A stretch of DNA of 64,000 nucleotides from Parcubacteria group bacterium (GTDB taxonomy: Bacteria > Patescibacteriota > Minisyncoccia > Phycocordibacterales > UBA2135). The DNA is taken from NCBI GenBank assembly GCA_016176785.1, contig JACOWN010000007.1, positions 6,970-70,969 on the forward strand, read 5' to 3'. Below, piece after piece: positions 2,073-64,000 of the stretch. Numbering within the stretch: position 1 is the stretch's first letter; every line of letters begins with the position of its first letter. Below the pieces are notes generated by a model, which saw only the letters and a list, made by a program, of their open reading frames with translations, searched no databases and was not told the origin of the DNA. Made by a program: the position numbers and the translations under genes.

Positions 2073-2624
2073 ATGCCTTACAATTTTTCGTCGTTAGACG
2101 GCAAGCTTGAGAAAGTGAAAGAATGGTTCACCCGCGAACTTTCAACGGTCAGAACCGGCCGCGCGGCGATCGCCGTTCTTGACAGCGTTCGCGTTGAATC
2201 ATACGGCGCCGCAATGCCCGTCACCCACGTCGCCGGCATTACGACGGAAGATGCGCGGACCATCCGCGTCACGCCGTGGGACAAGAATCAGATTAAGGTC
2301 ATTGAAAAAGCGATCCTTGAAGCGAATCTGGGTTTGTCGGTCGTCGTGGACGACCGCGGAATCCGCATCATATTCCCCGAATTGACCGCAGAGCGGCGCG
2401 AGGCGCTTAAAAAGGTAGTCAAAAACAAACTTGAAGAAGCGCGCATCGCGCTCCGCAAGGTGCGCGATGAAGTGTGGCATGACATTCAGGAACAAGAACG
2501 GCAGAAAAAACTTTCCGAGGACGAAAAGTTCCGGTTGAAAGAGGATATGGAGAAGCGCATCAAGGGAGCGCAGGCCGTGTTGGAAGAGGCGGCGGAGAGA
2601 AAAGAAAAGGAAATATCCGCATAG
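2073..2624 (+). CDS. frr: ribosome recycling factor
   Basis: 183 aa; typical RRF length and sequence (..VRTGRA.. , ..RIIFPELTAERREALKK..). Confidence 0.9.
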   Translation: MPYNFSSLDGKLEKVKEWFTRELSTVRTGRAAIAVLDSVRVESYGAAMPVTHVAGITTEDARTIRVTPWDKNQIKVIEKAILEANLGLSVVVDDRGIRIIFPELTAERREALKKVVKNKLEEARIALRKVRDEVWHDIQEQERQKKLSEDEKFRLKEDMEKRIKGAQAVLEEAAERKEKEISA

Positions 2625-2639
2625 TCGGCACTCACGAAC

Positions 2640-3752
2640 ATGTCCGTTTTACTCTTTATCATCGTCCTTGTCGTCCTCATTCTCGTCCACGAGTTCGGGC
2701 ATTTTATCGTTGCAAAAAAAACGGGGATCCGCGTTGACGAATTCGGGCTCGGATTTCCGCCGAAGCTTTTCAGCGTTCGCCGGGGAGAAACGGAGTATTC
2801 CATGAACGCGCTGCCGTTCGGCGGCTTTGTGCGCATTTTCGGAGAAAATCCAGAGGATGTCGCCTTAGACCATCCAGACCGCGCGCGGAGTTTCGTTGCC
2901 CGGCCAAAACCGATACAGGCAGCCGTCATGGTCGCCGGAGTTACCGCTAACATTGCGCTCGCGTGGGTCCTGCTTTCTTTTGGGTTTATGGTAGGGCTCC
3001 CCATGCCGGTTGACGGTGCGCCGCAAGGCGTCGTCGTGGAGAACGCGCGCGTCGCGATCATAAGCACCGCGGACGGCTCGCCCGCCTCCGAGGCGGGGCT
3101 TCTGCCCGGCGACCGCGTACTTTCTTTGTCTGCGAAAGGGGACCGGCGGGACATCGCGTCGGTCTCCGACCTGCAAACGTTCATTGCGTTCCACGGCGGC
3201 TTGCCCGTGACGGTGCTTTACGAACGGCAAGGCGAGCGGCAGACGGCGGTCGCAACGCCTCGTTCGGGTTCGGGGATTCCGGAGCTGCCGTTTGCGCAAC
3301 CGGCGCTCGGAGTCACCGTCGGTCTTATCGGCACGGTGACGCTTCCACCGCATCGCGCGTTTTTTGAAGGAGCGCGCATGACCGCCGCACTCACCTCGTC
3401 CGTCGTTTCTTCATTCGGCATGCTTGCCCGCGATGCGTTCCGCGGCGCAGCCGACCTCGCGACGCTCACCGGTCCCGTCGGCATCGCGGGTATCATCGGC
3501 GACGCAGCGGATTTCGGAATTATCTATCTTCTCGGGCTGACCGCGTTCATTTCCATTAATCTCGCCGTCATAAACCTCCTGCCGCTTCCCGCTCTTGACG
3601 GCGGCCGACTCCTTTTTCTTTTGATAGAAGCGGTGAGGGGTGCGCCGCTCAATCCGCGCGCGGTTACCATTGCGCATGCCGTCGGGTTTGCGGCTCTCAT
3701 CATCCTCATGCTCGTCGTCACCTTTAACGACATCGTCCGCATCGTTTCCTGA
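2640..3752 (+). CDS. rseP: RIP metalloprotease RseP (M50 site-2 protease with PDZ)
   Basis: HEFGHFIVAK zinc-binding HExxH in the first TM segment, central PDZ-like segment, NLLPLPALDGG motif near the C-terminus. Confidence 0.85.
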   Translation: MSVLLFIIVLVVLILVHEFGHFIVAKKTGIRVDEFGLGFPPKLFSVRRGETEYSMNALPFGGFVRIFGENPEDVALDHPDRARSFVARPKPIQAAVMVAGVTANIALAWVLLSFGFMVGLPMPVDGAPQGVVVENARVAIISTADGSPASEAGLLPGDRVLSLSAKGDRRDIASVSDLQTFIAFHGGLPVTVLYERQGERQTAVATPRSGSGIPELPFAQPALGVTVGLIGTVTLPPHRAFFEGARMTAALTSSVVSSFGMLARDAFRGAADLATLTGPVGIAGIIGDAADFGIIYLLGLTAFISINLAVINLLPLPALDGGRLLFLLIEAVRGAPLNPRAVTIAHAVGFAALIILMLVVTFNDIVRIVS

Positions 3753-3802
3753 TCACCGCAAGATCGCCGCGGCCGTGCGACGCGCGCCTGTCAATTTCCA
3801 TG

Positions 3803-3836
3803 AAAAAATCCCGCGCTAGTGCGGGAGATTTTTGGT
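3803..3836. terminator. bidirectional intrinsic terminator between rseP and the convergent minus-strand ORF
   Basis: A-tract, then stem TCCCGC/GCGGGA with a 6-nt loop, then a T-tract; sits between convergent gene ends. Confidence 0.5.
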
Positions 3837-4172
3837 GTGATGACGCACCACGGAAATGATCATGTCTGCCCATCCGGTTGCGTTCCCGACGAGCCAGTCG
3901 GCGTATTGTTGCCGCTTTTCGTCGGTGTCAAGCGGCGGCGAGAATGGATTTTGAACGGTCGTGTGCGCAACGCCCGCGCGAAGCTCCTGCCGACACTCGG
4001 GGTCGGGTTCAAAAAACCACGGAAAGAACACCGCTTTGTACCCGCGCCGCCACGTTTCGCTTTTGTCGGGAAACGCCTTGGAAAGCGCAGCGTCTGCTTC
4101 CGTTTCTGAAAGACATACGCGCTTGCTGAAGCTTAACTTGTTAAACGGGCCGTGCGTATGGCTCATTGCCAT
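3816..4172 (-). CDS. hypothetical protein
   Basis: About 118 aa from the ATG at 4172 (GGAG 7 nt upstream); non-repetitive protein-like sequence; the only sizable ORF in a 480-bp gap; convergent terminator at its 3' end. Confidence 0.4.
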   Translation of the reverse strand: MAMSHTHGPFNKLSFSKRVCLSETEADAALSKAFPDKSETWRRGYKAVFFPWFFEPDPECRQELRAGVAHTTVQNPFSPPLDTDEKRQQYADWLVGNATGWADMIISVVRHHTKNLPH

Positions 4173-4212
4173 TTCTCCGCATCGTCTCTTGTTCTGTATA
4201 GCACGGCGAAGT

Positions 4213-4241
4213 TTGAATGAAAAGCGCTTTTGGGCTATCAT
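4213..4241 (+). promoter_or_regulatory. sigma70-like promoter of proS (TTGAAT-17-TATCAT), leaderless configuration
   Basis: -35 TTGAAT at 4213-4218, 17-nt spacer, -10 TATCAT at 4236-4241, ATG at 4248 (6 nt after the -10). Confidence 0.4.
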
Positions 4242-4247
4242 AGAGCA

Positions 4248-5492
4248 ATGCGATTTTCACATCTTTTTACCGCAACGCGGCGCGATGCGCCGAAAGATGA
4301 AGTTGCAAAAAACGCGCAGCTTCTTGTCCGCGCCGGATTCATCCATAAAGAAATGGCGGGTGTTTATTCGTATCTCCCGCTCGGCTTCCGCGTCCTTAAA
4401 AAAATAGAGAACATCATCCGCGAGGAAATGGACGCGATCGGCGGGCAAGAGGTGCTTTTGACGGCGCTTCAGGACCCCGACGTGTGGAAGAAGAGCGGCC
4501 GCTGGTCGGATGACGTGGTAGACAACTGGTTCAAGACGACGCTTGCGAACGGCGCGGAGGCGGGCATCGCGAATACGCACGAGGAGCCGCTCACCGCCCT
4601 CATGCGGGAACACGTCCGCTCCTACCGCGATCTGCCGCGGTACGTGTACCAGATCCAAGATAAGTTCCGGAACGAACTGCGCGCAAAATCAGGGCTCATG
4701 CGCGGGCGCGAGTTCATCATGAAAGATCTTTACTCGTTCACGAAAGACGAGAATGAATTGGAGCGTTTTCACGAGAAATGCGCGGAGGCGTACCTGCGCA
4801 TCTTCCGCCGCGTCGGATTGGGAGAACTGACATACCGCACCTTTGCATCCGGCGGCGCATTTTCAAAATACAGCGACGAGTTCCAAACGCTCTCGGAGGC
4901 GGGGGAGGACACGATCTACGTTGACAAAGAAAAAGGAATCGCGGTCAACAAAGAGGTATATACCGATGAGGCGCTTGCCGACCTCGGTCTCAAAAAAGAA
5001 AACCTCGTTGAAGCGAAAGCGATAGAAGTGGGGAACATCTTCAAACTCGGCACGCGTTTTTCGGAGGCGCTCGGACTCACGTATCGGGACGAGGACGGCG
5101 CGGAAAAGCCGGTCGTCATGGGTTCATACGGCATCGGACTCGGGCGGCTTATGGGCGCGGCGGTTGAGGTGTTCTCGGATGAAAAAGGAATCGTGTGGCC
5201 GGAAGAGATCGCGCCGTTCGCATACCACCTTATTGCGCTCGGCGCCGAGCGCACGGTCCGCGCGCGCGCGGACGAGATCTATGACATGTTCGCCGCCTCC
5301 GGCGCGGAAGCGCTCTATGACGACCGCGAAGAAAGCGCGGGGGTAAAGTTTGCGGATGCGGAGCTTATCGGCATTCCGACCGTCATCATCGTAAGCGAAA
5401 AAACGCTCTCCGCCGGCGAAGACCGCGTTGAAGTGCGTCGCCGCGCGACGGGCGCGTCCCGCATGGCGCGCATCGGTGACATCGTTACCTGA
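4248..5492 (+). CDS. proS: prolyl-tRNA synthetase (short form without the editing insertion)
   Basis: Class II aaRS motifs; N-terminus MRFSHLF..DAPKDEVAKNAQLLVRAGFI typical of ProRS; the ORF-track start at 4230 is TTG, the ATG at 4248 is preferred. Confidence 0.85.
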   Translation: MRFSHLFTATRRDAPKDEVAKNAQLLVRAGFIHKEMAGVYSYLPLGFRVLKKIENIIREEMDAIGGQEVLLTALQDPDVWKKSGRWSDDVVDNWFKTTLANGAEAGIANTHEEPLTALMREHVRSYRDLPRYVYQIQDKFRNELRAKSGLMRGREFIMKDLYSFTKDENELERFHEKCAEAYLRIFRRVGLGELTYRTFASGGAFSKYSDEFQTLSEAGEDTIYVDKEKGIAVNKEVYTDEALADLGLKKENLVEAKAIEVGNIFKLGTRFSEALGLTYRDEDGAEKPVVMGSYGIGLGRLMGAAVEVFSDEKGIVWPEEIAPFAYHLIALGAERTVRARADEIYDMFAASGAEALYDDREESAGVKFADAELIGIPTVIIVSEKTLSAGEDRVEVRRRATGASRMARIGDIVT

Positions 5493-19087: not shown

Positions 19088-20056
19088 ATGCCGACAGTTT
19101 TTGTCACCCGAAAAATCCCCGAAACGGGGCTCAAACTGCTCCGAGAGAAGGGATATGAAGTGGATACGTCCGAAAAGGACGGCGTTTTGACGAAAGAAGA
19201 ATTGATCGCCGCGCTGCGGATGAAACCCTACGACGCGGTGCTGTGCCTTTTGACCGACACGATAGACGCGGCCGTTTTTGACGCGGCGCCCTCGGCGAAA
19301 ATTTTTGCGAACTACGCGGTCGGGTTTGACAATGTTGATGTCGCGGAAGCGAAGCGGCGCGGCGTTGTCGTCTCAAACACGCCGGATGTTCTGACGAATA
19401 CGGTTGCCGAACACACCTTTGCCCTTATGCTCGCAATCGCGCACCGGATCGCCGAGGCGGACCGTTTTACCCGCGCGGGGAAATACGAAGGATGGGCGCC
19501 GGAGCTTTTACTCGGAACAGGTGTATCCGGAAAGACCCTCGGCATCTTGGGCGCGGGGCGCATCGGCGCGCGCGTTGCCTACCACGGCGCGAAAAGTTTT
19601 GATATGCGGGTGCTTTACTATGACGTCAGGCGGAATGAGGCGATTGAAAAAGAAGTGAACGCGGAGTTTCGCGATAGCGTTGAGGCGGTTTTGAAAGAAG
19701 CGGATTTTGTGACTATCCATGTGCCGCTTCTTTACTCAACGCGGCATCTCATGAACCGCGCGCGGCTCGCTCTGATGAAGCCGACGGCCTATCTCGTGAA
19801 CACGTCGCGCGGGCCGGTCATTGACGAGGCGGCGCTTGTGGAAGCGCTTGGAAACGGGGTTATCAAGGGCGCGGCGCTGGATGTTTTTGAGAATGAGCCG
19901 GCGCTCGCCACCGGTCTTTCCGAGTTGGAGAATGTCATTGTGACGCCCCACATCGCTTCCGCGACTGAAGAGGCCCGCTCGGCGATGTCCCGTCTCGCGG
20001 CAGAAAACATTATTGCGGTTTTGGAAGGAGAAGAAGCCCCGAACGCGGTCAGATAG
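19088..20056 (+). CDS. D-isomer-specific 2-hydroxyacid dehydrogenase (glyoxylate/hydroxypyruvate reductase-like)
   Basis: GILGAGRIGARVA NAD-binding motif; catalytic R/E/H triad region (..TSRGPVIDE..HIASAT). Confidence 0.8.
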   Translation: MPTVFVTRKIPETGLKLLREKGYEVDTSEKDGVLTKEELIAALRMKPYDAVLCLLTDTIDAAVFDAAPSAKIFANYAVGFDNVDVAEAKRRGVVVSNTPDVLTNTVAEHTFALMLAIAHRIAEADRFTRAGKYEGWAPELLLGTGVSGKTLGILGAGRIGARVAYHGAKSFDMRVLYYDVRRNEAIEKEVNAEFRDSVEAVLKEADFVTIHVPLLYSTRHLMNRARLALMKPTAYLVNTSRGPVIDEAALVEALGNGVIKGAALDVFENEPALATGLSELENVIVTPHIASATEEARSAMSRLAAENIIAVLEGEEAPNAVR

Positions 20057-20117
20057 TGAAAGATATTATCACGTGTTTGTCGGAACATGTCGTTTCAACA
20101 AGCATTCTGACGGCAGA

Positions 20118-20241
20118 CACTTGGCAGGAGGGCGGTAATTTGTTATACATAACGCAGGAAGTGAAAGTCCAGTGTGCACTGGGCTTTGTCCCTCGACAAG
20201 CTCAGGGACAATCCCAAACCCAAGAAAAGGAGGAAGGACAA
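20118..20241 (+). promoter_or_regulatory. promoter plus conserved structured 5' leader of cassette copy 1
   Basis: TTGGCA-17-TGnTATACA extended -10; leader with hairpins CCAGUG..CACUGG and GUCCCU..AGGGAC; AAGGAGG RBS; about 90% identical to 21450-21639. Confidence 0.45.
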
Positions 20242-20955
20242 ATGGGAAAGCTGTGCAAGGATCAGAGGGAAACCCTGATTGGCAAGTTGGCCGCCCTGTT
20301 CTCAGGGGTTACGGCCGACGAGATCGACGAAGTGGTGGACGCCACCAAGACCCTTCTCACGAGTGAGGCCAAGGAAGCCAAGAACCGCGAGCGCCTGGAG
20401 ACCTTTGATGGTCAGGTCAAGACCTTGATCGACAAGGGCTACCCCGAAGCGGCCGGCATGGAGAAGGATCAGTTCCTCGGGTATGTGAACCCCCTCAGGG
20501 ACAAGTTCGAGATCGGCGACATCATCGTCATCCCCGAGCGGATCGTCTCCATCCCCAAGCAGATGTCGCTGGTGAAGCTCGCCGGCAAGACGGGCTATAC
20601 CCGCCTCAACCTCGGCGTGCTCACGCAAGCCGATGGTGTCGAGACCCCGAATGTCCCGTACCTGATTCGCGATGTCGAGGACGGGAGCGCCTGTCGGAAC
20701 ACCTCTCCCGGCGACTGCGTCAAGCAGTTCAAGAAGCAGGGACGGTTCGGACTCGTCACGGAGGAAGGGATCGCCATCGTCACCCACAAGCCGGAGACGC
20801 TCTGCGATCACTACATCGATCTCCCCGGCTCCCGCTATTATGGCTCGGGCCATGTGCCGCTCTTGTGGCTCAATGTCGGTCGGCCGAAGCTCGACTACAA
20901 CTGGGCTGTCAGCGACATCTCGAAGTGCGGTTCCGCGTCCTGCGGTAGTCGCTAG
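20242..20955 (+). CDS. hypothetical protein, cassette paralog A (unknown family)
   Basis: 237 aa from the ATG behind the AAGGAGG RBS; GC3-rich codon usage unlike neighbouring genes; paralog of 21640-22375; C-terminus ...GSASCGSR. Confidence 0.6.
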   Translation: MGKLCKDQRETLIGKLAALFSGVTADEIDEVVDATKTLLTSEAKEAKNRERLETFDGQVKTLIDKGYPEAAGMEKDQFLGYVNPLRDKFEIGDIIVIPERIVSIPKQMSLVKLAGKTGYTRLNLGVLTQADGVETPNVPYLIRDVEDGSACRNTSPGDCVKQFKKQGRFGLVTEEGIAIVTHKPETLCDHYIDLPGSRYYGSGHVPLLWLNVGRPKLDYNWAVSDISKCGSASCGSR

Positions 20956-21026
20956 GACTTTGGACTTTGGGCCCTTGCCGTGCCCGCCGTAGGCGAGGCT
21001 CGCCAAAGGCGGCAGGTCGCGTCACG

Positions 21027-21068
21027 CGACACAACGAGGGCAGTTCGATGCATCACGCACGATCTGCC
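21027..21068 (+). terminator. intrinsic terminator after cassette copy 1
   Basis: GGGCAG ... CTGCCC stem followed by TTTTTTT. Confidence 0.5.
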
Positions 21069-21174
21069 CTTTTTTTCTATCTTTTTATTCAAAAAAGCGG
21101 TAAATAAAAAACATGATGTTTGTTGCGCACAAGAGAGAAACCGCACTATACTTTCGTAAGACGTACAAGGAGGG

Positions 21175-21408
21175 TCACTCATCGCGTGTGAGCGCATGTG
21201 GATGATGCTTCGGACGTGAGGAGCGCGTCGGAATCGCTCCATAACCGCGTCTCTTTGCTTTCGCCACCCACTTTACCACTGCGGAGTGGGTGTATCCGAA
21301 ATGTCTCGCCGCCTTTCTCGTCGACCACCCGCGACGGACCAACTCCACCGCTTGTCCCCGAACTTTTGGCAGTTCGGGATTTAGTGCTATATGCCATATG
21401 CACTTCAT
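21175..21408 (-). mobile_element. truncated transposase N-terminus (HTH plus ..SRPKHHP linker; IS481/IS3-integrase-like), IS remnant
   Basis: 77 aa: ..VELVRRGWSTRKAARHFGYTHSAVVKWVAKAKRRGYGAIPTRSSRPKHHP, then stop; lies exactly where the similarity between the two cassette copies breaks (21178). Confidence 0.5.
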
Positions 21409-21449
21409 GCTAACCCCCAGGGTGGTTCCAAGCTATTGAACCATTACGG

Positions 21450-21639
21450 ACACTTGACAGGAGGGCAGTAATTTGTTACACGTAACGCAGGAAGTGAAAG
21501 TCCAGTATGTGCTGGGCTTTGTCCCTCGACAAGCTCGGGACAATCCTGAGCGAAGTCGAAGGATTGACAACGGAATAATCTCCGCCTACGCATAAAGCTA
21601 CGGCGGACAGGCCAAACCCAAGCAAAGGAGGAAAGACCG
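21450..21639 (+). promoter_or_regulatory. promoter plus conserved structured 5' leader of cassette copy 2 (about 70-nt insertion relative to copy 1)
   Basis: TTGACA at 21453; same leader hairpins as copy 1 with compensatory substitutions; AAGGAGG RBS. Confidence 0.45.
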
Positions 21640-22375
21640 ATGGGAAAGCTGTGCACGGATCAGTTGATCGGGAAGTTGGTCGCCCTCTTGCGAGAGGCCG
21701 ACTCGGAGGAGTTCGATGACGCGGTGACGCAGGCCAAGGGTCAACTCACGGCAGAGTCCAAGCAGGCCAAGCGGAACGACCTCGAGAAGCTCTTCGACGC
21801 TCAGATCGCGACTCTCAAGGATCGCGGCGTCCCCGAGCAGATCGTGGAGATCCTCCAGAACCAGAAGGGTTCGGTGGTGAAGAAGGCGAGCGAGTTCGGT
21901 GGTGAAGAAGGCGAGCGAGATGGCGATCGGAGACGGCAACATTCCGTTTCTCCCCGTCATCCCCCGCTCCCCTCGGAGCCCCTACGACCTCATGGCCATG
22001 GTGCGAAACGGTTCGAAGGTGGGCTACGCCTACCTCAACCCGACGCAGATCTCCGATGTGGTGGACGCTCCCCAAGAGCCCTACTACATCTACGATGTCG
22101 AGGACGGCAACATCACCCGTGGCAAGTCGCCGGAAGACGCCCTAAAGATCTTCAAGCAGCAGAAGCGGTCTCCGCTCACTGCCGCCGAGGTCATGGCGCT
22201 CGCGACTCACACGGATGTGCTCTCGCGGCACTATGTGTGGGCTACCGGCTCCCGCTATGAGTTCGCCGCCCGGGTGCCGAATGTCTATCTGGGCGGCGGT
22301 CGGCCGAAGCTCGGCTGGGACTGGGTCGGCGACTCGCTTGGCCACTGGGGTTCCGCGTCTTGCGGTAGTCGCTAG
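21640..22375 (+). pseudogene. cassette paralog B, disrupted by a frameshift
   Basis: ORFs 21640-22260 and 21899-22375 are in different frames but together align with paralog A (..YIYDVEDG..GSRY..GRPKL..GSASCGSR); the frameshift coincides with the 25-bp tandem duplication. Confidence 0.55.
21871..21919 (+). repeat. 25-bp perfect tandem duplication (tcggtggtgaagaaggcgagcgag x2)
   Basis: Seen directly in the sequence; the length is not a multiple of 3, so it shifts the frame of paralog B. Confidence 0.7.
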
Positions 22376-22497
22376 GACTTTGGACTTTGGGCCCTTGCCT
22401 GCCCGCCGATTTTTTCCCCCCGCCGTAGGCGAGGCTCGCCAAAGGCCAAGAGAGAAACCGCACTATACTTTCGTAAGACGTACAAGGAGGGTCACTA

Positions 22498-22908
22498 ATG
22501 GCGCGCAGGCCGAAGCAATCAGAAGTTGAAAAACGGCGCCGCGAGGCGTTGCCCGACCTCCCGTATTTTGACCGCGCGACGCTCGTGGAAGCGGGCGATG
22601 TTTTTTCGGGATACGCGGACCGATGGATAGGCCAGTATAAAGAAGGATATTGGGAGCCGCATCATATCCTGGCCCGACTCGTGGAAGAAGAGGTCGGCGA
22701 GCTGTCGCGCGAGGTGAACCACGAATTCGGCCCGAAAAGAAAAAAGAAAAGTGAGATCGCCGGAGGAGTTGCCGAAGAACTGAGCGACATTCTGTTCACG
22801 ATCGTCTGCCTCGCGAACTCCCGGGGCATCAACCTCGGCGCTTGCTTTGCGGACACATTGGCGAAGTACAATAAACGCGACACCGGGCGGTTCAAAAGAA
22901 AGAAGTGA
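22498..22908 (+). CDS. MazG-like nucleoside triphosphate pyrophosphohydrolase
   Basis: 136 aa; EEVGELS...AEELSDILFTIVCLAN MazG/NTP-PPase helical motifs; preceded by a TATACT -10 and an AAGGAGGG RBS that are also present (orphaned) after cassette copy 1. Confidence 0.7.
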   Translation: MARRPKQSEVEKRRREALPDLPYFDRATLVEAGDVFSGYADRWIGQYKEGYWEPHHILARLVEEEVGELSREVNHEFGPKRKKKSEIAGGVAEELSDILFTIVCLANSRGINLGACFADTLAKYNKRDTGRFKRKK

Positions 22909-53849: not shown

Positions 53850-55196
53850 ATGTTTTCTGTGGATAACCTGTGGAAAAACCCGAAAAGGACCGTCCTTTTT
53901 GCCGGGGTTGCCGCGCTCGCGTTTTTGGGATACTTGGGATATGCGCCAGGAAATGCGCCGGCGGTCTTTTCTGCGGGGCTTATTGATGAGTTGCGTTCAA
54001 AGATACAGGAACGGAACAGCGAAATTGAGAAATTGGAGCAGGAAATCAAACGCTACGAAACGGAAATCACCACCATCAACAAAGCAACGCGGACGCTAAC
54101 GTCAACGGTTGCCGAAATAACGACAACGGAACGGAAACTTCGCACGGACATTACGCTTACGGAGCGAAAAATCAACACCGCCGCGCTTACGATACAAGCG
54201 CTCTCCGATGAGATCGCCGACAAAGAAGCGCGCATCAAAACCAACACCGCCGCGATCGGCGAGATCGTGCGGCGGATGCATGAACTGGAGTCGCGCTCGC
54301 TCATAGAAATATTTCTTTCCCGCGACACGTTTTCAAGTTTCTGGGACATTGTGGAAAATCTCGGGCGTCTTGAAAAAGGGGTTGCGGCAAACGTTGCCGA
54401 GCTTGAGTTTCTGAAGGAAGGATTTCTTACGGCGCGTTCCGAACGCGAGGCGGAAAAAACGCGGCAGACAAAACTCCGCAACCAACTCGCGGACCAAAAG
54501 GAACTTGTGGCGGCGAGCCGCGCACAGCAGGAAAAGCTCTTGCGCGAAACCAAAAACAAAGAAACGCTTTACCAAAATCTTCTTGAGGAACGCCTCGCGC
54601 GCAAAGAAGCGCTTGAGTCCGAGATCGCGGCGTTTGAAGACCAGCTGCGCGTTGAAATTGACCCGTCCAGTTTGCCGCCGACGGGGATGGGGGGCGTGCT
54701 TTCATGGCCGCTCGCAAGCGTTACCGTCACGCAGTATTTCGGCAACACGCCGTTCGCGAGCAAAAATCCACAGATCTATAACGGCGGCGGGCACAACGGC
54801 ATAGACCTGCGCGCTTCCGTAGGAACGCCCGTTTTGGCGGCGGCAAACGGCATCGTGGTGGACACGGGCGACACCGACACTGGCTGTTACGGCGCTTCTT
54901 ACGGCAAATGGGTACTGGTGAAGCACTACAACAACCTCGCGACCTTGTATGCGCACCTCTCGCTTATTCGCGTCGCGGCGGGGGAAGAAGTCAGGACCGG
55001 CGACTTGGTCGGATACAGCGGCAACACCGGATATTCAACGGGGCCGCACCTTCACTTTTCCGTGTATGCCGCTTCGGCGGTCCGCGTTACGGACGCATAC
55101 AAAAGCAAAGTATGCAAAACGAACCTCAAACTCCCGCTCTCGCCGCGAAACGGATACCTCAATCCGCTGTCGTATCTGCCGGCACTTGATAATTAG
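53850..55196 (+). CDS. M23-family peptidase with N-terminal TM anchor and long coiled coil (EnvC/LytM-like)
   Basis: C-terminal LytM domain (GxHNGIDL..., ..YAHLS..., GNTGYSTGPHLHF); about 250-aa coiled coil. Confidence 0.8.
   Translation: MFSVDNLWKNPKRTVLFAGVAALAFLGYLGYAPGNAPAVFSAGLIDELRSKIQERNSEIEKLEQEIKRYETEITTINKATRTLTSTVAEITTTERKLRTDITLTERKINTAALTIQALSDEIADKEARIKTNTAAIGEIVRRMHELESRSLIEIFLSRDTFSSFWDIVENLGRLEKGVAANVAELEFLKEGFLTARSEREAEKTRQTKLRNQLADQKELVAASRAQQEKLLRETKNKETLYQNLLEERLARKEALESEIAAFEDQLRVEIDPSSLPPTGMGGVLSWPLASVTVTQYFGNTPFASKNPQIYNGGGHNGIDLRASVGTPVLAAANGIVVDTGDTDTGCYGASYGKWVLVKHYNNLATLYAHLSLIRVAAGEEVRTGDLVGYSGNTGYSTGPHLHFSVYAASAVRVTDAYKSKVCKTNLKLPLSPRNGYLNPLSYLPALDN
53858..53900. 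repeat. bipartite repeat locus D (TGTGGATAA, TGTGGAAAA, AAAAGGACCGTCCTTTTT) overlapping the 5' end of the M23 peptidase CDS
   Basis: Encodes ..VDNLWKNPKRTVLF.. in frame if the ATG at 53850 is the true start. Confidence 0.6.
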
Positions 55197-61219: not shown

Positions 61220-62362
61220 TTATGTCTGCGGCGTCGTCGTTGCGACTACGTTGACCGTTCTCGCCGCCTCTGCCGCCGCATTCCCCGCGGCGTCGGTTAC
61301 GTTGTAGCGGACGGTGTAGGCGCCGAGCGTCGCCGCATCAACGGGGTTCGTTACAACAATCTGCGCCGTGATGTCTCCGTCGGTATCGTCTGTTGCGGTG
61401 GCGCCTGCATCAGCGTAGGTGTCACCTTGCAGCATCTCCACCGTGCTTGAGCCGACGAGCGTGATCAAGGGCGGTGTCGTATCCGTCGCCTGCTCGCCGC
61501 CGCCTACGATCACGGTTCTGGTTGATGTCGCCGTGTTCCCCGCGTTGTCGGTTGCGACATAGGAAACGGTGTGCGTTGCGGCGACGGACGTGTCAAGCGC
61601 GACCGCGCTCGTAAAGACGCCGTCAAGGTAGGTCTGATAGCCCAAGTTTGAGTCCACATTGTCCGTTACCGTCGCGCCGTTGTCCGAATACGCCATGCCG
61701 AGCGCGATTTCCGCCGGATTTGCGCCGACAACGATGATGACGGGAGGCGTCGTATCGGTCGTTTGTTCCGCGCCCGCTCCGGCGTTTGAGTTTATATTTG
61801 CGTTCGCAAGCAACGCTTGCAACTGGTTCTCGTTGATACACGTGCTTCCGATGCAAAATTGGTCGCTCACGGTAATCCTCTGCGTGAAAATATCCGTAAA
61901 CGCGTTCGTTGCGGCCGCGATGCCGCTTGCGACTTGTTGTTCCAGCGTTTCAACCTTCTTCACGAGTTCTTGAAATGCAGAGAGAAGCGAGGTAACGAGT
62001 TTGTAAAGGTCAACCCCCTTACCGCCTTTGGCGAGAATTTCCTCCGGCGCTTCTTCCGCGATAAGCCCCAGCCGTTTCGGGTCGGTATCGTCATCGGTAT
62101 TGTAACGATAGGTTGCAACCCCGATGTTTTTTATCTTTTCAAAAAGCGATTCCTTCGCGGCTTCGTTGATATACGAGATGTCTTTTTTGCTTTCTTGCGT
62201 TGAAATGTTGACGAACGATTGTGCCGCAACATCTCCTATGACGTGGAGCGCGTATTCCGGCGTTGTCGTTCCGATGCCGATCCGCCCGCTTGCGTCAATG
62301 TAAAGCGACGGCGTTGAAGTTGGCGCAAGAAGCGTGCTTATCGCCGCCTCGCGCTGCTGCGT
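61220..62362 (-). pseudogene. tail-fibre-like surface protein, C-terminal segment: fibre repeat, complete intramolecular-chaperone (peptidase S74-like) motif, two DUF5011 Ig-like domains
   Basis: Open minus-strand frame continuous with 62363-63529 except for the TAG at 62363-62365; ..SKKDISYINEAAKESLFEKIKNIGVATYRYN...LGLIAEEAPEEIL..VDLYKLVTSLLSAFQEL.. resembles the S74 chaperone core; ..TTPPLITLVGSS..DAGATATDDTDGDIT..YTVRYNVTDAAGN.. repeats are DUF5011-like; the ORF-track start at 61963 is GTG. Confidence 0.5.
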
Positions 62363-63529
62363 CTAGGACGACAGGTAATTGAAGAACACGGGGCGGAGTT
62401 GCATCACCTCGGCAAGCCCGTAATCCAAGTCGGCGACGTTCTCCTTATAGCGAAGCGATGAGGACGAATTGCAGTCGTTTGAGGTATTGACGCGGATTTC
62501 ACCCGTCGCGCTTGACCAGCACACGTCATCCTCTATGGTAGTTCCTGTCTCAAGCCCCGTCGCAAACATGTTGCCGTTGACATCAATTTTCATTTTTTCG
62601 GTAAAGGTAATGGTATTGCCCGCAGACCCGCTCCCTGCGGTGCGAAATATGTAACTGGCGGCGCCGTCTAAATAAACCTGTGAAGCGGCGGCGGTTTCTT
62701 TGTAAAGCCATGCGGTACCGTTGTAAAGTGCGTTCTGTCCCAAAAATGTCTCGTCGGAAACCCCCGCCAAGCCCGTCCTGTCGCCTATATCAAGTGCCGG
62801 GGTATTTGTCCACTGGCCATTCGGCACCACTCCGATGCCCAAGACACCAGTGCTTGTAATTCTCACCTTTTCCGCCATGGCTCCGTCAAGCATAGTGGCA
62901 AACACAAGTGCGGAATCACGCGTTGAAGCCGTGGATGTCCACTCTACTTCTTTTGCGGAAAAGACGCCTCCGGCGGTTCGTGAAGCACCCCCCGTATCCG
63001 CGAAAAAGAAACCATACCCGGCGATGCCGTTCACGGAGAATGTCGCGCTCGGCGAGGTTGTCCCAATGCCCAAGTTCCCGCTTGAATCAAGGCGCATGAC
63101 CTCGGTGCGCCCGCCCGCTTGGTGGTTTATGAACGCGAGTTCTGTTCCCCCCGATTCGCGGATTGACGAGATGCGGGATGATTTTGTTGCCGCCGTGCCG
63201 TGGTAGAAAATGAGGTCGGCGGTCGTGTTTTCTCCTGTACTCTTATTCTCTATGATGAGCGCGGGCGGCAGGTTCACGCCGTCCGAGGCGGTGTAGGTGA
63301 GCGCGCTCGTCGTTGCCGCGTGGAGGATGCCGTAGGTTTCCGTTGGTGAGTCAATCGCGATTTTCCCGTTGTCAAATATCGTGAGGATTTCTTTGTTGTT
63401 CGCGTCCGCGATTGCGAGTGTGCGTCCGGTTGAAACGCCCGCGCCGTTCACGGAGAATGTCGCGCTCGGCGAGGTTGTCCCAATGCCCAAGTTCCCGCTT
63501 GAATCAAGAGGTGCTTCCCCCGCGGTCAA
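62363..63529 (-). pseudogene. tail-fibre-like surface protein, central segment with xSGNLGIGTTSP repeats and a truncated S74-like motif before an in-frame TAG
   Basis: 388-aa ORF; DSSGNLGIGTTSPSATFSVNG occurs twice; C-terminus ..SSLRYKENVADLDYGLAEVMQLRPVFFNY resembles the first half of the S74 chaperone motif, then LSS and a stop. Confidence 0.5.
63026..63091. repeat. 66-bp perfect direct repeat, copy 1 (copy 2 at 63443-63508) inside the tail-fibre-like gene
   Basis: gccgttcacggagaatgtcgcgctcggcgaggttgtcccaatgcccaagttcccgcttgaatcaag is identical at both sites; copy 2 coincides with the frameshift. Confidence 0.75.
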
Positions 63530-64000
63530 TCATCTGAAGCGTCCGCCCGATACCGACATCCCCCGCGACCATAACATACGGGCTGTTGAACGCCTGCGTC
63601 GTCGTCGTGCCGACGAGCAGATTGCCGTCAGATGTAATTCTCATCTTTTCACCCGCAGTTGCGTTAAGTGCGGCGGCAAAGACCATCGCAGAATCTCTTG
63701 TGGAGCCGGTGGTTGTCCACTCCTGTTCCTTCCGCACGAAAATCCCGCCTGCGTTTCTTTCGTTACCGGAAGTATCGGCAAGGCGGAAACCCAATGCCGC
63801 AAAATTATTCGTCGCCGCAGTAGTATCGTAGTTTGAAATGAAAGAAGCGACTCCGGTGAAATCGACGGCTCCCGTTTCAGTTCCGTCCCTCCTGACTTCA
63901 AGGCGTGAAGCGGGACTCGTGTCTCCGATGCCGACGTTGCCCGCATTGTCAATAATGAACGGCGTCTGGTCGGGTGATGTGTCATCCTCCACCAAAAACG
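63504..64000 (-). pseudogene. tail-fibre-like surface protein, upstream segment (runs off the window); frameshifted relative to the 62363-63529 segment
   Basis: 163-aa ORF paralogous to repeats in the next segment (AGGIFVRKEQEWTTTGSTRDSAMVFAAALNATAGEKMRITS vs AGGVFSAKEVEWTSTASTRDSALVFATMLDGAMAEKVRITS); overlaps it by 26 nt in another frame. Confidence 0.45.

Follow-up and report, generated by a model that had tools for sequence, protein, structure and literature searches.

Diversity-generating retroelements (DGRs) that act on lectin-fold proteins, such as Mtd of a Bordetella phage, TvpA of Treponema, LdtA of Legionella and AvpA of archaea, are the closest described counterparts of a tandem gene pair that we analysed in a 64-kb stretch of DNA from a Parcubacteria group bacterium (hereafter ‘the window’, which always means this whole stretch). 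Both genes belong to the Pfam family DUF5701, and we consider it likely that they are paralogous DGR-type variable-protein genes. As in the known systems, the variable region (VR) occupies the extreme 3' end of the gene and falls in what is probably a lectin-type domain, its variable codons have the forms NNC and NNT as if derived from the template codon AAY, and these codons are set in an adenine-free scaffold. The resemblance extends to a GC-rich element like the initiation of mutagenic homing (IMH) sequence, to inverted repeats downstream of it, and to relatives that carry a template repeat (TR), bAvd and a reverse transcriptase (RT). The window genes differ from the known systems in that the 64 kb contain neither a TR nor an RT, and in that proteins of the two DUF5701 subfamilies that they represent (types 1 and 2) lack a signal peptide, a lipobox and a transmembrane segment.

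The DGRs of Patescibacteria, or candidate phyla radiation (CPR), collected in the set of Wu et al. (2018) and in clade 2 of Roux et al. (2021), occur in the same hosts and are chromosomal, lying among housekeeping genes. Three DUF5701 loci (L028, L029 and L040) have the usual compact CPR layout of target, TR, Avd and RT. Unlike CPR DGRs, the commonest DUF5701 subfamilies (173 protein matches for type 2) lack a TR or RT in the sequence searched around the loci examined, and types 1 and 2 come as a GC-rich module of about 1 kb with a conserved promoter, 5' untranslated region (UTR) and 3' UTR. Patescibacteria DGR targets have no recognisable conserved or transmembrane domain (PMC5758913, PMC8144416), with which types 1 and 2 agree. 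Surveys anchored on the RT miss RT-distant targets by design (Roux et al., PMC8144416), and Wu et al. reported remote targets only in one non-CPR lineage (PMC5758913). Remote targets are diversified in trans in Treponema denticola and Legionella, where genes at a great distance from the RT retain a VR, an IMH and structure downstream. The window genes have a VR, an IMH-like element and predicted downstream structure too, and the trans action shown for remote targets elsewhere is what we infer for them.

Both window proteins match Pfam DUF5701 (PF18959) with 81.5 and 62.8 bits against a cut-off of 27.4, which supplies the family that the first-pass annotation had been unable to name, and relatives had already been annotated as PF18959. 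The window proteins gave no defence-system match in PADLOC, and the two DUF5701 proteins had no significant match in NCBIfam and matched no chain in a sequence search of the PDB. A full scan with the DUF5701 profile gave 1,348 cluster representatives (50% identity), and the source-named homologues are all Patescibacteria (Campbell-, Specht-, Taylor- and Saccharibacteria, and ‘Patescibacteria group’). The DGR mechanism is known, and DUF5701 is not previously tied to DGRs in the literature searched, where it goes unmentioned; the searched supplements of Roux et al. 2021 contain neither DUF5701 nor the GSASCG motif.

The variable region and its codon signature

The two genes lie in units arranged head to tail at about 20116-21179 and 21420-22497, much as the first-pass annotation had placed them, and self-BLAST found no third copy of the units in the window. 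Their coding parts are the following.

20242-20955, plus strand: unit 1 coding sequence, 237 amino acids, DUF5701 ‘type 1’, with a helical N-terminus and a probable C-type-lectin-like C-terminus
20836-20928, plus strand: unit 1 VR, codons 199-229, delimited by codon alignment
20929-20952, plus strand: unit 1 conserved tail GSASCGSR, whose first 17 nt, GGTTCCGCGTCCTGCGG, form the GC-rich IMH-like element
21640-22375, plus strand: unit 2 coding sequence, DUF5701 ‘type 2’, frameshifted; Pfam PF18959 at E 4.8e-17, 173 homologues
22256-22348, plus strand: unit 2 VR, codons 198-228, recognised from position-specific differences and from adenines at invariant sites
22349-22446, plus strand: unit 2 tail, stop codon and 3' UTR, with the IMH-like element at 22349-22365

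Proteins that are 81-88% identical differ at almost every second residue between GSR and GSASCGSR. When 12 type-1 genes are aligned by codon, variation is seen in about 20 of the 31 VR codons and falls almost wholly at positions 1 and 2 (NNC, NNT, NNG). The codons interleaved with these (TCG, GTG CCG, TTG, CTC, GGT CGG CCG, CTC, TGG GCT, TCG) show little or no change, even at position 3. The mean pairwise differences at codon positions 1, 2 and 3, calculated from eight close sequences of type 1 and four sequences of type 2, invert between body and VR.

Type 1: body 0.092, 0.066 and 0.19; VR 0.264, 0.331 and 0.064; tail 0, 0 and 0.339
Type 2: body 0.25, 0.22 and 0.475; VR 0.25, 0.33 and 0.085; tail (8 codons) 0.062, 0 and 0.062

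The invariant sites of the VR are also nearly devoid of adenine. Type 1 has adenines at 0 of 54 such sites, where 26% would be expected from the invariant sites of the body (binomial P = 1e-7), and type 2 has them at 2 of 61 (P = 1.7e-6). Forty aligned type-2 proteins are hypervariable at the same columns. Read indirectly, from the VR sequences, this pattern is the signature expected of adenine-specific DGR mutagenesis. The earlier suggestion of a variable gene thus holds in that this is a variable-protein family, but hypervariation is confined to about 31 codons that bear a DGR signature and does not extend over the whole body.

Ordinary diversifying selection, acting through point mutation on the surface residues of a lectin-like protein, is in keeping with the clustering of the hypervariable residues in the C-terminal, probably lectin-like domain. 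We nevertheless regard it as extremely improbable, since it would neither erase synonymous change in the interleaved codons nor leave 54 invariant sites adenine-free, and since relatives carry a template whose mismatches fall at adenines only (see below). Among type-1 genes synonymous change resumes exactly at the first codon of the tail (0.34 at position 3), as it should if the tail is the IMH and is not overwritten; the tail of the four type-2 sequences shows almost no variation. Furthermore, synonymous divergence in the scaffold codons of the VR is lower than in the body by a factor of 3 to 5.6, even between candidate phyla. That this holds between Taylorbacteria, Saccharibacteria and the present Parcubacteria metagenome-assembled genome (MAG) favours templated refreshing of the VR after the lineages split.

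The AlphaFold2 model of the unit 1 protein (mean predicted confidence, pLDDT, 87; predicted template-modelling score, pTM, 0.78) has long N-terminal helices and a C-terminal alpha/beta domain. Foldseek returned C-type-lectin-like domains from the PDB only at E > 2, which is non-significant, and we therefore rate the model-based assignment of a C-type-lectin-like fold to the C-terminal domain as probable, not certain.

In the mechanism that we propose, an RT with bAvd would copy TR RNA and misincorporate opposite adenines, and the resulting cDNA would replace the VR up to the IMH-like element. This putative element lies at 20929-20945 and 22349-22365, with hairpins predicted downstream in both units and a terminator in unit 1. 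Template codons of the forms AAY, GAC, TAC and AAG would be randomised at their adenines and all other bases re-copied from the template, such that the presumed binding-surface residues would be randomised and the scaffold codons re-copied unchanged. The cognate template would be A-rich, containing GTGCCGAAYTTGTGGCTCAAYGAYGGTCGGCCGAAGCTCAAYTAYAAYTGGGC for type 1 and GTGCCGAAYGTCTATCTG...CGGCCGAAGCTCAAYTGG for type 2, and would end with GGTTCCGCGTCYTGCGG before diverging. A TR and RT elsewhere in the genome would serve the window genes in trans, now or recently. The protein would presumably bind a variable ligand, either on a host-cell or phage surface or, given that no signal peptide is present, inside the cell.

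Template and reverse transcriptase

Complete cassettes exist in more distant relatives. At L028, L029 and L040, a DUF5701 gene that shares about 45% identity with unit 1 across its C-terminal three quarters is followed, in this order, by a TR, bAvd and RVT_1. The L029 cassette matches bAvd (PF22296, E 7e-16), NF033474 DivGenRetAVD (E 2.4e-18) and RVT_1 (E 4e-21); L028 has RVT_1, and L040 has both RVT_1 and bAvd in its precomputed Pfam annotation. L040 is a 58-kb chromosomal contig on which the cassette is surrounded by tsaD, sua5, rbfA and rny. The VR/TR pairs are 118-120 nt long and 83-84% identical, and in L028 and L029 every core mismatch falls at an adenine of the downstream copy, which identifies that copy as the template repeat; L040 has an identical TR open reading frame (ORF). 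TR/VR homology stops after GGTTCTGCTTCTTGCGG (...TGCGG), within the GSASCG codons. The real TR translates as SRYDSDNVPYLNLNDDRPKLNYNNSDNANS(R/H)YGSASCG, and the type-1 template deduced from variability alone, GSRYDSDNVPNLWLNDGRPKLNYNWADNDNSKWGSASCG, closely matches it.

Closer to the window genes themselves, a series of results weighs against their assignment to a DGR. The window holds no third VR-like copy (self-BLAST and a 3-mismatch search), no ORF with a Y/FxDD RT motif other than the FADD of TrpRS, and no AAY-rich template in a scan for AAY-rich frames. Seven related loci (L001, L007, L014, L015, L017, L019 and L032) likewise have neither an RT-motif ORF nor a second VR-like copy within the span searched, which was 0.4-10 kb per side, with 10 kb on both sides only for L032 and a shorter side of 0.4-0.8 kb for L007, L014 and L019. 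Viral contigs contained no relative of the DUF5701 proteins and no match to three degenerate VR/TR patterns, and a profile built from inferred and real TR peptides recovered only the known L029-type TR ORF among called proteins. A scan of a genome collection with the 20-mer GGTTCCGCGTCYTGCGGTAG returned four Patescibacteria VRs plus chance matches in Actinoplanes and Blastocatellia, but it could find VRs only, not TRs, because 3 nt of the pattern lay beyond the TR/VR boundary. The Campbellbacteria allele P0015 recurs unchanged on 11 contigs, six of which come from six assemblies or samples, and that Campbellbacteria lineage hence gives no indication of continuing diversification. Finally, the ORF of copy 2 is broken, as 21870-21894 is repeated exactly at 21895-21919 and the reading frame is shifted.

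Three smaller observations belong with these searches. An AAY-rich frame near 54023 was rejected as a template, for it is the coiled-coil part of an M23 peptidase. Extension of the window through exact-protein matches at both ends gained about 4 kb leftwards and nothing of use rightwards, and revealed no RT. The chance matches in Actinoplanes and Blastocatellia lie in another frame of a gene that we take to be RibD-C-like.

Given that no TR or RT was found in the window or in the spans searched around the seven loci, the window genes are either remote or orphan targets. It is quite conceivable, if not what we would expect, that they are relics of DGR descent on which no cognate DGR now acts, with VR differences that are frozen and a second copy that is decaying. 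This view draws on the same missing TR and RT, on the frameshift in copy 2, on the P0015 allele that is identical across assemblies and samples, and on the -10 hexamers, which are degenerate in the window (TATACA and TACACG) compared with TATACT in relatives. It sits less well with the low synonymous divergence of the VR scaffold across lineages, which points to templated refreshing. Moreover, remote targets more than 100 kb from their RT are documented in other bacteria (PMC5758913). The 64 kb visible here are only part of a genome that we assume to be about 1 Mb in size.

Conserved flanks and the history of the pair

The conserved ends of the two units, which had first drawn attention to the locus, comprise the following features together with the elements that separate and follow them.

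20121-20149, plus strand: unit 1 promoter-like site TTGGCA-17 nt-TATACA, from the sequence and an alignment of 13 leaders (relatives have TTGACA-17-TATACT); missed by a consensus scan because the last -10 base is A
20164-20187, plus strand: stem-loop in the unit 1 5' UTR, AAAGUCCAG-loop-CUGGGCUUU, predicted with RNAalifold from 9 leaders
20189-20214, plus strand: palindromic leader insertion TCCCTCGACAAGCTCAGGGACAATCC, common to unit 2 only and not in 11 other leaders
20956-21076, plus strand: unit 1 3' UTR with TTGG repeats, hairpins and a terminator; fold energy -70.9 kcal/mol, z -3.05
21130-21179, plus strand: orphaned copy of the mazG promoter and ribosome-binding site (RBS), a 50/50 match to 22447-22496
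21175-21419, minus strand: internal fragment of an IS481-family insertion sequence (IS), 245 nt, with only the N-terminal helix-turn-helix (HTH) and a 77-aa ORF at 21175-21408
21454-21482, plus strand: unit 2 promoter-like site TTGACA-17 nt-TACACG, from the sequence and the leader alignment, uncalled by the consensus scan
21483-21639, plus strand: unit 2 5' UTR, with a stem-loop at 21497-21520 and palindromic insertions at 21522-21564 and 21581-21612
21870-21919, plus strand: 25-nt tandem duplication, TTCGGTGGTGAAGAAGGCGAGCGAG twice, exact, shifting the reading frame
22447-22908, plus strand: mazG promoter and RBS with a MazG-family gene (22498-22908), a neighbour outside the system

When identity is computed segment by segment, the two units prove to be very unevenly related, in contrast to the uniform identity that the first-pass annotation had named as the mark of a simple recent duplication. 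Promoter and leader are identical at 91 of 98 positions, the Shine-Dalgarno region at 23 of 27, and codons 1-15 at 89% of nucleotides. Identity then drops to 53% of nucleotides and 37% of amino acids in the body (codons 16-195; 49% at third positions), and the whole proteins are 40% identical. The claim that the last ~30 codons are nearly identical did not survive: this applies only to the final eight (GSASCGSR, 23/24 nt), and the 31 codons before them (199-229) share 56% of nucleotides and 32% of amino acids. The 3' UTRs agree at 55 of 58 positions apart from a 16-nt indel and, with the promoter piece that unit 1 shares with mazG, the flanks are 85-100% identical overall. The near-identical flanks, the loosely similar bodies and the orphaned promoter had been described correctly.

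These flanks are by no means peculiar to the window. Leaders consisting of TTGACA-17-TATACT and the 5' UTR stem-loop are 78-94% identical across subfamilies, genomes and candidate phyla, and the 3' UTRs, with their TTGG repeats, two hairpins and terminator, are 86-93% identical among other loci, although that of unit 1 is only 71-74% identical to them. Third codon positions between subfamilies are saturated, unlike the flanks. Similar flanks accompany bodies of both subfamilies in other genomes, which the first-pass annotation had proposed to look for. The stem of the 5' UTR, about 9-12 bp, lies close to where the mRNA is predicted to begin; among the nine leaders it is supported by a single compensatory pair (G-C to A-U), besides three G-U changes. 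A riboswitch reading of the leader finds no Rfam match, for the window gave 0 matches at gathering thresholds and 20000-22600 gave chance-level matches only at E <= 10. A scan of the window for tRNA and tmRNA found none.

In the unit 1 3' UTR, the hairpin CCGTAGGCGAGGCTCGCC is a local insertion, GTCGCG-TCA-CGCGAC occupies 21016-21030, and the terminator stem (21038-21069) is followed by a T-run. Genes of every subfamily carry 3-5 TTGG motifs, at intervals of 7-9 nt, immediately behind the stop codon, for example GGACTTTGG GCCCTTGG GCCTATTGG. They lie at 20956-20981 and 22376-22401 in the window, at about 2872-2905 in L029, and in the 3' UTRs of L008, L014, L015 and L017. The complete cassettes also have a TTGG-repeat stretch 3' of the VR, and the rest of their 3' UTR cannot be aligned with that of types 1 and 2. 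Judged by their sequence, the repeats may be a protein-binding or target-recognition element.

Three characters are unique to units 1 and 2: the palindromic insertion directly after GGGCTTTG in the leader, which is locally derived since it is absent from 11 other leaders, the GGACTTTGGACTTTGGG duplication, and the hairpin CCGTAGGCGAGGCTCGCC in the 3' UTR. These shared derived insertions, and the duplicated mazG promoter, indicate a local duplication with replacement or conversion of a body. The bodies themselves belong to separate, old subfamilies, and orthologues of each, 82-87% identical, are present in other genomes: type 1 (unit 1) has a relative, L008, at 86% nucleotide identity, and type 2 (unit 2) has relatives at 82-84% in Taylorbacteria, a Spechtbacteria MAG and Saccharibacteria. 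The two bodies therefore did not diverge in place. Unit 1 ends right after ...SR, as type-2 genes do, and about three quarters of the other aligned type-1 genes carry a short extension, usually of three residues such as IRA.

On the simplest reading, the segment from leader through gene and 3' UTR to the mazG promoter was duplicated in tandem in association with the IS, and one body was afterwards exchanged for an allele of the other subfamily by recombination within the conserved stretches at either end. Alternatively, the two neighbouring paralogues may have undergone conversion of their flanks. That body exchanges occur is shown by L032/P0030 (10001-10828), a naturally occurring chimera in which a type-1 N-terminal segment, MGKLCTDEKEMLIGKLAALFLGVTADEIDEVMDATKTRL..., is joined in frame to a type-2 body. 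Exchange anchored in the flanks, as envisaged in the first-pass annotation, is thus borne out by the shared derived insertions, the mazG promoter and the chimera, but conserved flanks are found well beyond this locus. Duplication with cassette exchange or gene conversion, with the flanks as recombination anchors and no retroelement at all, we consider improbable as a full account. It would explain the insertions unique to the two units, the perfect copy of the mazG promoter and the chimeric relative, yet it leaves unexplained the variation at codon positions 1 and 2, the adenine-free invariant sites and the cassettes with VR, TR, Avd and RT, and it does not fit flank conservation that is family-wide and not local.

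If the two units are DGR-type genes, as we favour, the mosaic would have three causes. The promoter, the 5' UTR and the 3' UTR are conserved throughout the family; the VR scaffold and tail would be kept uniform by templated copying and selection; and the local IS-associated tandem duplication with subsequent replacement or conversion would have set two old bodies between recently shared flanks. A further proposal is that type-1 and type-2 genes are portable DGR target modules of about 1 kb that have spread horizontally in Patescibacteria and are diversified in trans by a remote or shared DGR, the TTGG-rich 3' UTR serving as a hitherto unrecognised cis target-recognition element and the flanks as homology arms for the swapping of bodies. 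Such a module would bring its own promoter, 5' UTR stem-loop, coding sequence with VR, IMH, TTGG-repeat 3' UTR and terminator. We think this rather unlikely.

GC-rich palindromic insertions are present in UTRs at 20189-20214, 21522-21564, 21581-21612 and 20983-21012, and also in the leaders of L020 and L023 and the 3' UTR of L015. Examples are TCCCTCGACAAGCTCGGGAC (‘..PELVEG..’ on the other strand) and CCGCC-loop-GGCGGACAGGC. Within the window they are found only inside the two units, and they may be miniature mobile hairpins. Flanks of the integron-cassette type or of miniature inverted-repeat transposable elements were rejected, as the module borders are a promoter and a terminator and the palindromes are confined to the two units.

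Copy 2 has a history of its own. Its 3' UTR is without a 119-nt stretch that is present in unit 1, and the loss of this stretch, terminator included, and the gain of the frameshifting duplication are later events. The earlier description of two proteins of about 237 aa consequently holds for unit 1, which is intact, and fails for copy 2, which reads as 236 aa only after removal of one 25-nt copy. None of 39 aligned type-2 homologues has the duplication, and the deposited MAG record annotates only the distal 151 aa (P0065, HYS74_01660, on an 82,980-bp contig). The duplication may be a true mutation that made copy 2 a pseudogene, or else an error in the assembly or the consensus. A wider artefact, in which mis-joined reads of a multi-copy hypervariable family produced both the tandem and the 25-nt duplication, is very improbable. 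The family does break assemblies, with many homologues on 1-2 kb contigs or at contig ends, and Logan assemblies of the same population are fragmented. But the bodies, at 53% nucleotide identity, are too different to be collapsed or confused, the junction is marked by a unique IS fragment, discrete indels distinguish the flanks, and the 25-nt duplication is present in the deposited record.

Many homologues in the wider collection lie on contigs of 0.8-2 kb or 50-500 nt from a contig end (L002-L006, L021, L030, L031 and others). The breaks fall 3' of the conserved 3' UTR and not in the VR, and suggest that conserved flanks present in multiple copies cause the fragmentation.

Genomic setting and significance

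The IS remnant between the units, first described as such without a family, is a fragment of an IS481-type element. It matches NF033577 transpos_IS481 at E 1.2e-8 over profile positions 2-62 of 284, with 34.8 bits against a cut-off of 224, and also Pfam HTH_23 and LZ_Tnp_IS481; about 11 nt are left upstream of the start codon. We call it a fragment since a complete element would have a whole DDE transposase and terminal inverted repeats. The MazG gene is indeed found after copy 2 only (PF03819, 43.6 bits against a cut-off of 22, E 3.6e-11), and is taken to encode a single-domain protein because NCBIfam models of full-length MazG score far below their cut-offs. The significance that had been attached to its position is lost, since relatives adjoin nadC, proS or doxX instead and the adjacency is therefore incidental.

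DUF5701 neighbourhoods differ, the gene lying after VKOR-DoxX genes in Campbellbacteria, beside nadC in L007, and between rseP and proS in L014 and L032. In L032 the type-2 gene sits between rseP (Peptidase_M50) and proS in a block with mreB, frr and DNA polymerase III delta', and L014 matches this synteny for the downstream genes. The equivalent region of the window is 2640-5492, where the slot at 3752-4230 carries an unrelated 141-aa ORF on the minus strand; the DUF5701 genes are 16 kb away.

The view that both genes are compositionally foreign was upheld, as each has a G+C content at third codon positions (GC3) of 0.836, compared with 0.66 +/- 0.05 for the 41 long ORFs of the window. DUF5701 genes are GC islands elsewhere too, as in Campbellbacteria, where the gene has 49-53% GC and its flanks 27-34%. 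Actinobacterial members of the same Pfam family (Streptomyces, Nonomuraea) are 25-31% identical over residues 52-237 and share the scaffold motif GSR..P.LW..PKLGW.W..W.G.AS (L042 3947-4606, Streptomyces plasmid NZ_CP108250.1; L041 4108-4833, MT838747.1), but they are without the GSASCGSR tail and the conserved UTRs of the Patescibacteria genes. The high GC3 of the latter could reflect an actinobacterial-type origin. The record MT838747.1 is labelled ‘Bacteriophage sp.’, but looks like high-GC, actinobacterium-like DNA with no recognisable phage gene among its ORFs.

Other genes of possible surface proteins were noted along the way. A DUF5701 relative at L026 (1395-2117) has a lipoprotein signal peptide and no VR-like tail, and it is followed by a second lipoprotein gene (2420-3328) with 60-nt tandem repeats inside. 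In the window itself, three large Thr/Ala-rich repeat ORFs with the recurring element SSGNLGIGTTSPSATFSVNG occupy 61220-63995 on the minus strand and resemble surface or fibre proteins.

What is new here is a probable role for DUF5701, the finding that RT-distant copies with conserved UTRs are prevalent, and a test for DGR targets that needs no template. Adenine-free invariant sites and an inverted codon-position pattern flagged these genes as DGR targets before any TR was known, and wider use of this approach is possible. DUF5701 has about 1,350 cluster representatives, and the results suggest that it serves as a lectin-fold scaffold on which a retroelement drives hypervariation. Its most numerous members lie away from any RT, which exposes a gap in RT-anchored DGR surveys, and the nature of the family suggests why assemblies break at these genes.

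The ultra-small Patescibacteria are believed to live in attachment to other cells. For them, a binding protein that can be diversified and is kept in one or more copies is a candidate for a role in host attachment or in the conflict between phage and host.

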